Assembly (NCBI GenBank): GCA_951406725.2
Contig: OX597830.1
Coordinates: 60,202,001 to 60,266,000, forward strand
Direction: 5' to 3'
DNA from: Octopus vulgaris
Lineage: Eukaryota
DNA: 64,000 bases
Shown here: piece by piece, positions 6,643-6,848 of the stretch
Position numbering within the stretch: position 1 is the first letter of the stretch
How the letters are laid out: every line of letters starts with the position of its first letter
The notes under the pieces: generated by a model
The model's input: the letters and a program-made list of their open reading frames with translations, nothing else
The model's database searches: none
What the model was told of the DNA's origin: nothing
Position numbers and translations under genes: made by a program

Positions 6643-6848
6643 TGACCGCGTGTGTACCGTTGGCGATTTTTTTCCTCCGTCTTCTCTTCTCTGGATCTTT
6701 CCTTTTCCTATGTTTCTGACGAAGAGCTCCGCTCGAAACGTTAAACCCTCCTTCTTTCCTTACTTCCTGAGCGTCCAATAATACTTTATTTGTTCCACGT
6801 CCTCGCGTTGTTGTGTTTTCTCTTTGTGTTTTCATGTTTGGATTAACT
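6643..6848 (+). mobile_element. Family D (TA)n-embedded element carrying a minimal hammerhead (Penelope pLTR/retrozyme-like)
   Basis: ~205-bp unit repeated at 46988, 56271 and 61793; every copy abuts (TA)n. Confidence 0.75.
6712..6746 (+). ncRNA. Minimal type I hammerhead ribozyme motif
   Basis: GUUU-CUGACGA-A-GAGC(UCC)GCUC-GAAA-CGUU^-AAAC: stem I GUUU/AAAC, stem II GAGC/GCUC, palindromic ACGU stem III. Confidence 0.7.

Follow-up and report, generated by a model that had tools for sequence, protein, structure and literature searches.

Short repeats with a hammerhead motif at TA microsatellites are very probably the pLTR ends of a Penelope-like element, putatively of Neptune type

The window, by which we mean the whole 64,000-nucleotide stretch of DNA that was analysed, contains four copies of a short repeat family that we call D and two copies of a sister family that we call E. 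The features that matter for what follows are listed here by window position.

6643..6848, plus strand: D copy 1, of the U4 subfamily (CUGACGA, GUU site); taken to be a 5'-truncated pLTR end of the parent Penelope-like element (PLE)
6712..6746, plus strand: predicted minimal type I hammerhead motif of copy 1, called from the sequence; architecture as in PMC4209133
6848..6895, no strand: (TA)24 tract at the 3' junction of D copy 1; likely target site
24692..24887, minus strand: family E copy of the same layout; core CUGUUGA (A6U), stem I with C-G for G-C
46989..47207, minus strand: D copy 2; CCGACGA/GUU, motif at 47096-47130; subfamily of the PLE copies L294, L295 and L299
49166..49347, minus strand: family E copy; core CUGUAGA (A6U)
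56272..56473, minus strand: D copy 3; CCGACGA/GUU, motif at 56361-56394, one loop base lost
61794..62003, minus strand: D copy 4; CCGACGA/GUU, C11.1 changed to U, motif at 61898-61932

A BLAST search with copy 1 returned these four D copies, at 85-90% identity, and no more, which agrees with the count in an earlier, sequence-only reading of the window. The 35-nt motif of copy 1 sits precisely where that reading had put it, and the three minus-strand motifs, all with CCGACGA, were likewise confirmed at the positions listed. Its account of copy 2 was right about the motif at 47096, but the copy itself starts at about 47207 and belongs to a different subfamily. The 3' ends of all four copies enter (TA)n or a TA-rich repeat, as had been described. 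The same reading held that the family has no ORF, Pol III boxes or TIRs. The window copies indeed have no ORF, but the statement is limited to them, the parent described below having an RT-endonuclease ORF. By a simple pattern search the four copies have neither a sense-strand A box nor a B box, and so lack the marks of a tRNA-derived (Pol III) SINE, but two of them do have an A-box-like antisense match. A TIR-bearing DNA transposon was rejected as a reading of D because the ends of D are asymmetric.

A 46-nt duplicate of the 5' head of copy 3 lies at 56439-56530, with TA repeats between, and is possibly the product of an aborted first round of integration. Elsewhere in the window, a Mariner-type transposase (54279-55286, minus strand; Pfam Transposase_1 and HTH_48) is present as two frames split by a stop, and self-comparison of the window revealed three dispersed repeat families, one at 11613-12359, 29810-30631, 31831-32928 and 13072-13716, a second at 15311-15619, 17144-17465, 41351-41542 and 43145-43425, and a third at 34128-34332, 42128-42364, 42797-43033 and 60813-61053.

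The motif of D consists of a 4-bp stem I, the core, an extra A, a 4-bp stem II with a 3-nt loop, GAAA, and the palindrome ACGU. This is the layout of the minimal type I hammerheads of PLEs, which have stems I and II, an extra base after A9, GAAA and a palindromic stem III, and the cut that had been predicted to follow position 6742 was placed correctly (H17 is U). The stem II changes among the window copies do fall in the loop or give a G-U pair, as previously noted, but they lend no support to the structure. The loss in copy 3 leaves a 2-nt loop, and the G-U of copy 4 affects the G10.1-C11.1 pair at a CpG; judged from the sequence, both changes resemble neutral decay.

We scanned the genome assembly (2.8 Gb in 227 contigs) for D. 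A 33-place motif pattern gave 6,851 exact matches, against none for the reversed control, and a 19-mer from the 3' half of D gave at least 10,276 copies, again with none for its reversed control, bearing out the claim of high copy number. For the anatomy of the family we used the first 90 of 100 listed 19-mer matches, all on contig C1 and picked regardless of the hammerhead (hereafter the 90 sampled copies); 34 of the 90 also fit the motif pattern, from which recapture gives some 18,000 copies, likely a floor. A relaxed hammerhead descriptor found 170 matches in 909 kb of element-enriched loci and none after shuffling. Because motif matches are abundant and the reversed and shuffled controls gave none, a chance origin of the motif is excluded. 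In an Rfam scan the 150 matches listed, out of 370, were taken up by microsatellite matches and included no hammerhead family.

Where does D come from? Two long D copies enter a CA-rich stretch, and one enters a frame resembling the N-terminus of a PLE protein. Hits to the two sequences converged on one strand at a spacing of 3.6-4 kb, and so outlined elements of 5-6 kb. Of 20 regions retrieved, 4 (L226, L231, L232, in which the 3' copy is partial, and L235) had D before and after an RT-endonuclease ORF, all in the same orientation, and in 6 others D followed the ORF and a CA-rich UTR. Among 30 loci with the ORF N-terminus, 15 had D directly upstream of the 5' region. The ORF is a single frame that joins RT to a C-terminal GIY-YIG domain, with YIDD, DKG and GIY-YIG motifs in L226, L233, L289 and L298. 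Its Pfam matches all fall under the curated cut-offs (RVT_1, E 1e-4 to 0.1; GIY-YIG, E 0.0024), and its protein has 408 homologues, many of them with RVT_1. CX4CxxC and two core cysteines, by which PMC8557442 recognises Neptune, can be seen directly in the protein, and on the strength of these motifs we label the parent provisionally as Neptune-type.

A young subfamily of the parent, 84% identical, retains open frames of 883-1008 aa (protein search, best 93 of 24,159 candidates scored) and forms 6.17-kb head-to-tail tandems that are 99.4-99.7% identical; such tandems, together with D on both sides of the ORF, are what is expected of the pLTRs of an EN+ PLE. Copies of this intact young subfamily lie at L289-L293, L296-L298 and L300-L303, and its motif is matched exactly 959-1,245 times in the genome. 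At the pLTR junction of the parent itself the sequence ends TTATA(TA). Copy 1 matches the pLTR of L227 at 95.0% identity over 139 nt and that of L232 at 93.6% over 204 nt; for copy 2, 218 nt align with the 5' pLTR of L295 at 97.2%. An autonomous Penelope RT/GIY-YIG element with the D pLTR, which the sequence-only reading had proposed looking for, was thus found in the same genome. In our view D almost certainly represents the final ~210 nt of a pLTR, and the PLE to which this pLTR belongs, provisionally of Neptune type, occurs complete elsewhere in the genome. The earlier proposal of a retroelement with a Penelope-type minimal hammerhead is accordingly supported; that of a stand-alone element built around the ribozyme gives way to the 3' part of a PLE pLTR.

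A PLE family with a 781-aa frame was rejected as the parent, its pLTR not being homologous to D, and we took the D copies close to L047 and L073 to be there by chance. A genome search with Pfam GIY-YIG (best 150 of 6,136 candidates scored) returned other PLEs. The family with the 781-aa frame is a second young Neptune-type PLE of this genome (L061-L066; ORF at L061:2745-5087), with an upstream ORF, pLTRs of ~300-500 bp, a TA target, and a U3-A8 minimal hammerhead with a 6-nt palindrome. D and pieces of the young ORF occur in contigs of runs presumed to be RNA but not on record as RNA; in these contigs no start, end, strand or circle was seen.

The canonical core CUGANGA, implied by the sequence-only reading, proved not to be a rule of the family. 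Copy 1 has it, but among the 82 of the 90 sampled copies scored at position 4, 68 have C, 12 have U and 2 have A, so that about 83% carry U4C, as does the young intact element. The cut-site base H17, scored in 87 of the 90, is U in 74, C in 9, A in 4 and never G. By eye, the first 100 motif matches listed comprise 81 with CCGA, 17 with CTGA and 2 with CAGA, and GTA occurs solely beside CTGA (6 of 6); a 36-mer with the canonical CTGA and GTA is matched exactly at 252 places in the genome. We rejected CpG decay as the source of CUGA because U4 co-occurs with several other diagnostic sites (at one of them, in 11 of 12 copies versus 1 of 64); U4 instead marks a subfamily of D that includes copy 1. 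The U4-bearing parents L227 and L238 form one supported clade, alternative roots not being rejected (p-AU 0.05-0.10). In the young element, CCGACGA and a GUC site were present in all 22 copies spanning the core (from the first 30 of 1,245 matches), and stem I contains a U-U.

The conservation that had been asked of the motif was found at one level and not at another. Between D and the young pLTR, identity is 91-94% in the motif and 58-64% in the flanks (p = 4e-5 to 3e-4), so the motif is kept beyond its flanks across subfamilies. Within D, however, there was no significant excess: among the 90 sampled copies, private changes run at 1.8% in the motif versus 2.3% in the flanks (p = 0.20), and columns with shared variants number 2 of 25 versus 31 of 139 (p = 0.17). 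The stems are paired in 97.1% of 104 cells. One pair covaries, and by a single event: where D has G-C, E has C-G. In stem II no pair has changed at both positions. Folding-energy models favoured other structures: the double hammerhead scored -5.7 kcal/mol and an alternative dimer -22.5, and shuffled sequences folded as well as the 208-nt D RNA (z = 0.53). Some 20 nt beyond the hammerhead on its 3' side, at window positions 6766-6774 (alignment columns about 174-182), D, the young pLTR and E all retain CCYGAGCG amid diverged sequence; this stretch might base-pair with the 3' strand of stem II.

Family E is also TA-targeted, with 13,009 exact motif matches and a loop that differs from that of D. 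Position 6 of its core is U in 97 of the 100 matches listed and A in none (by eye), and N7 is A in 8, C in 8, U in 13 and G in 1 of 30 loci (L244-L273). These loci were picked by motif, and identity of the motif among E copies is therefore partly built in. One of them, L257, ties E to a PLE ORF that is 55-62% identical to that of D's parent.

The way in which D copies begin and end bears on how they arose. The 3' end is complete in 87 of the 90 sampled copies, and (TA)3 adjoins the 3' junction in 78 of them, against a background of 7%, which supports the claim of TA targeting. The 5' ends are variable, the pattern of target-primed reverse transcription. Nevertheless, the length of 63 of the 90, counted from the 3' end, is 190-230 nt, and TA repeats flank the 5' side of 39 of these 63 (background 8%). 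Of 30 copies of the young autonomous subfamily (first 30 of 1,245 matches), 2 end at 190-230 nt and 14 exceed 1.3 kb. The difference between 63 of 90 and 2 of 30 is highly significant (Fisher p = 7e-10), the two samples differing in age and anchor motif and both coming from the first part of one contig. Because this wall is present in D and not in the young subfamily, most D copies likely derive from short templates, and the ends of the young copies indicate that ordinary truncation by the parent's RT does not make it. The earlier suggestion of non-autonomous spread is thus likely correct. Internally deleted derivatives, in which the ORF N-terminus is joined to D at about -212, were seen at L143/L164, L169, L193, L003 and L236, the last in tandem; the -212 junction was present in 3 of the 30 N-terminus loci.

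Our preferred reading, to which we assign a probability of about 0.7, is that D is a pLTR end that spread by way of short templates and carries a slow, inherited hammerhead. It draws on direct observations, namely the homology to the parent, the position around the ORF, the fixed 3' ends, the TA targets, the wall near -210 and the conservation of the motif across subfamilies. Most D copies would, with good probability, have spread into (TA)n as short non-autonomous passengers of the parent's enzymes. The GIY-YIG endonuclease would nick (TA)n, the UAUA at the 3' end of the RNA would pair with the nick, and RT would copy from 3' to 5'. Short TA-flanked copies would then likely be re-transcribed, through read-through or an internal promoter such as that of Drosophila Penelope (PMC2377424), and the short transcripts would serve as templates in trans, reproducing the ~210-nt unit; pLTRs suffice in cis for mobilisation in trans (PMC3846280). 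We infer the short-template step from the 5' ends, and its master short element, promoter and transcript start are all hypothetical. The hammerhead, inherited from the pLTR, would cleave as a dimer only, through ACGU, and slowly, given the U4C core, the GUU site and the 4-bp stem I. Dimer cleavage would probably process or circularise tandem transcripts of the parent, most solo templates likely remaining uncut. We hold slow cleavage of the dimer to be rather more probable than none.

Other readings of the same data deserve weighing. All D copies could be 5' truncations of full-length parent transcripts, dead on arrival; the wall near -210 would then mark a place where, in the older subfamilies, RT stops or where ATGTG anneals preferentially with TA/TG repeats. 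Long versions do exist in every D subfamily examined, 13 of the 90 sampled 5' ends share one ATGTG/ATATG site with a repeat-like flank, and PMC4209133 reads single minimal hammerheads as truncated PLEs. Yet the young subfamily keeps CCATGTG at -213 and stops there in just those 2 of 30 copies, only 2 of the 90 D copies extend past -230, and a short unit similar to D's recurs in most, though not all, of the 30 E loci (by eye). We consider this reading unlikely. Rather doubtful, too, is the view that the motif has lost its cleaving activity and persists as an RNA signal, either bound by RT or pairing through its ACGU palindrome. In the young intact element U4C is fixed, in E the A of position 6 is replaced, and 8 of 9 Xenopus retrozyme dimers failed to cleave (10.64898/2026.07.22.740005). 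On the other hand, the sites that vary among the matches listed are those at which a working hammerhead allows variation (N7 in E, H17 in D). Moreover, U4C is a known natural low-activity variant: it considerably lowers activity in vitro but is active enough in a viroid in vivo, A6C being slow (PMC3088659), and PMC13481778 accepts CYGANGA as a core descriptor. The 5' ends themselves fall within 3 nt of the predicted cut in only 2 of 90 D and 0 of 30 young copies (first matches listed), which fits a motif that does not cleave, but circular templates would likewise yield copies spanning the cut, so the lack of a pile-up is compatible with uncut and circular templates alike.

That D is a classic non-LTR retrozyme, amplified from tandem arrays through circular RNA, strikes us as highly improbable. 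Retrozymes do derive from pLTRs and are often monomers (10.64898/2026.07.22.740005), and in L235 three same-strand D copies, with TA tracts between them, follow the PLE. Yet a same-strand neighbour within 760 nt was found for 1 of the 90 sampled copies, inverted neighbours 76-77% alike for 3 of the 90, and no same-strand pair closer than 1 kb among the first 100 matches listed. As tandem arrays are so rare in this sample, D is not a classic retrozyme, contrary to one option of the sequence-only reading; the retrozymes of PMC7229834, moreover, combine canonical hammerheads with circles that pair with themselves, while D has a minimal hammerhead and is unstructured. A bolder and, as a whole, improbable picture is that two sister PLE lineages have kept the hammerhead fold under selection as a signal for RT recognition or RNA pairing rather than as a ribozyme, with different core changes (U4C in D, A6U in E), while their ~210-nt pLTR ends spread in SINE-like fashion by the tens of thousands.

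The role of the hammerhead in PLEs has been called unclear (PMC8557442), and this genome offers a natural series for probing it: U4C with GUC in an intact young element, U4 or C4 with GUA or GUU in older subfamilies, A6U in a sister family, and U3-A8 in a further Neptune-type element. Our results also suggest that among the short, abundant repeats listed as "unclassified" in genomes of this kind some are PLE pLTR ends. A repeat annotation of Octopus vulgaris counts 30 Penelope families with recent activity and 893 SINE families left unclassified (PMC13282606); by a term search its main text contains neither "ribozyme" nor "hammerhead", and its library probably includes D, if the species is the same. 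In the literature searched, octopus PLE hammerheads, A6U and SINE-like pLTR ends went unreported; Lunse et al. (PLE hammerhead dimers) and Ambros and Flores (U4C) lay outside it and may describe such variants.

Finally, we compare D and its parent with known systems. Like the Neptune-type EN+ PLEs of PMC4209133 and PMC8557442, the parent has RT with a C-terminal GIY-YIG domain and a CX2-5CxxC linker, and the two share with them direct pLTRs, head-to-tail tandems, 5' truncation and microsatellite targets. The PLE hammerheads of PMC4209133 resemble that of D in their short stem I, the extra base between 9 and 10.1, the G10.1-C11.1 pair and the palindromic 15.2-16.2, and most of those motifs are likewise dispersed singly. 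D differs in that its majority core is CCGACGA, the described PLE variant being U3-A8 (PMC4209133; PMC8557442), and in that its stem II has 4 bp and those of Neptune-type PLEs 6-8; the long CA-rich 3' UTR of the parent and the piling of solo copies at one length are further differences. The metazoan non-LTR retrozymes (PMC7229834; 10.64898/2026.07.22.740005) are, like D, short, non-coding, hammerhead-bearing and derived from PLE pLTRs, with many monomers, but their definition calls for tandem repeats and a canonical type I hammerhead, whereas D is almost always single and minimal. Non-autonomous elements of Chlamys, such as MRC1, have a 3' end in common with an autonomous PLE (PMC8557442), as D does, and the solo pLTRs of Adineta vaga (PMC3846280) parallel D, as we read it, in that pLTR sequences are all that mobilisation in trans demands in cis; both belong to other clades, the Adineta copies being far fewer and most Chlamys elements being without canonical hammerheads. 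The class of element is already well known, and D adds a member to it.
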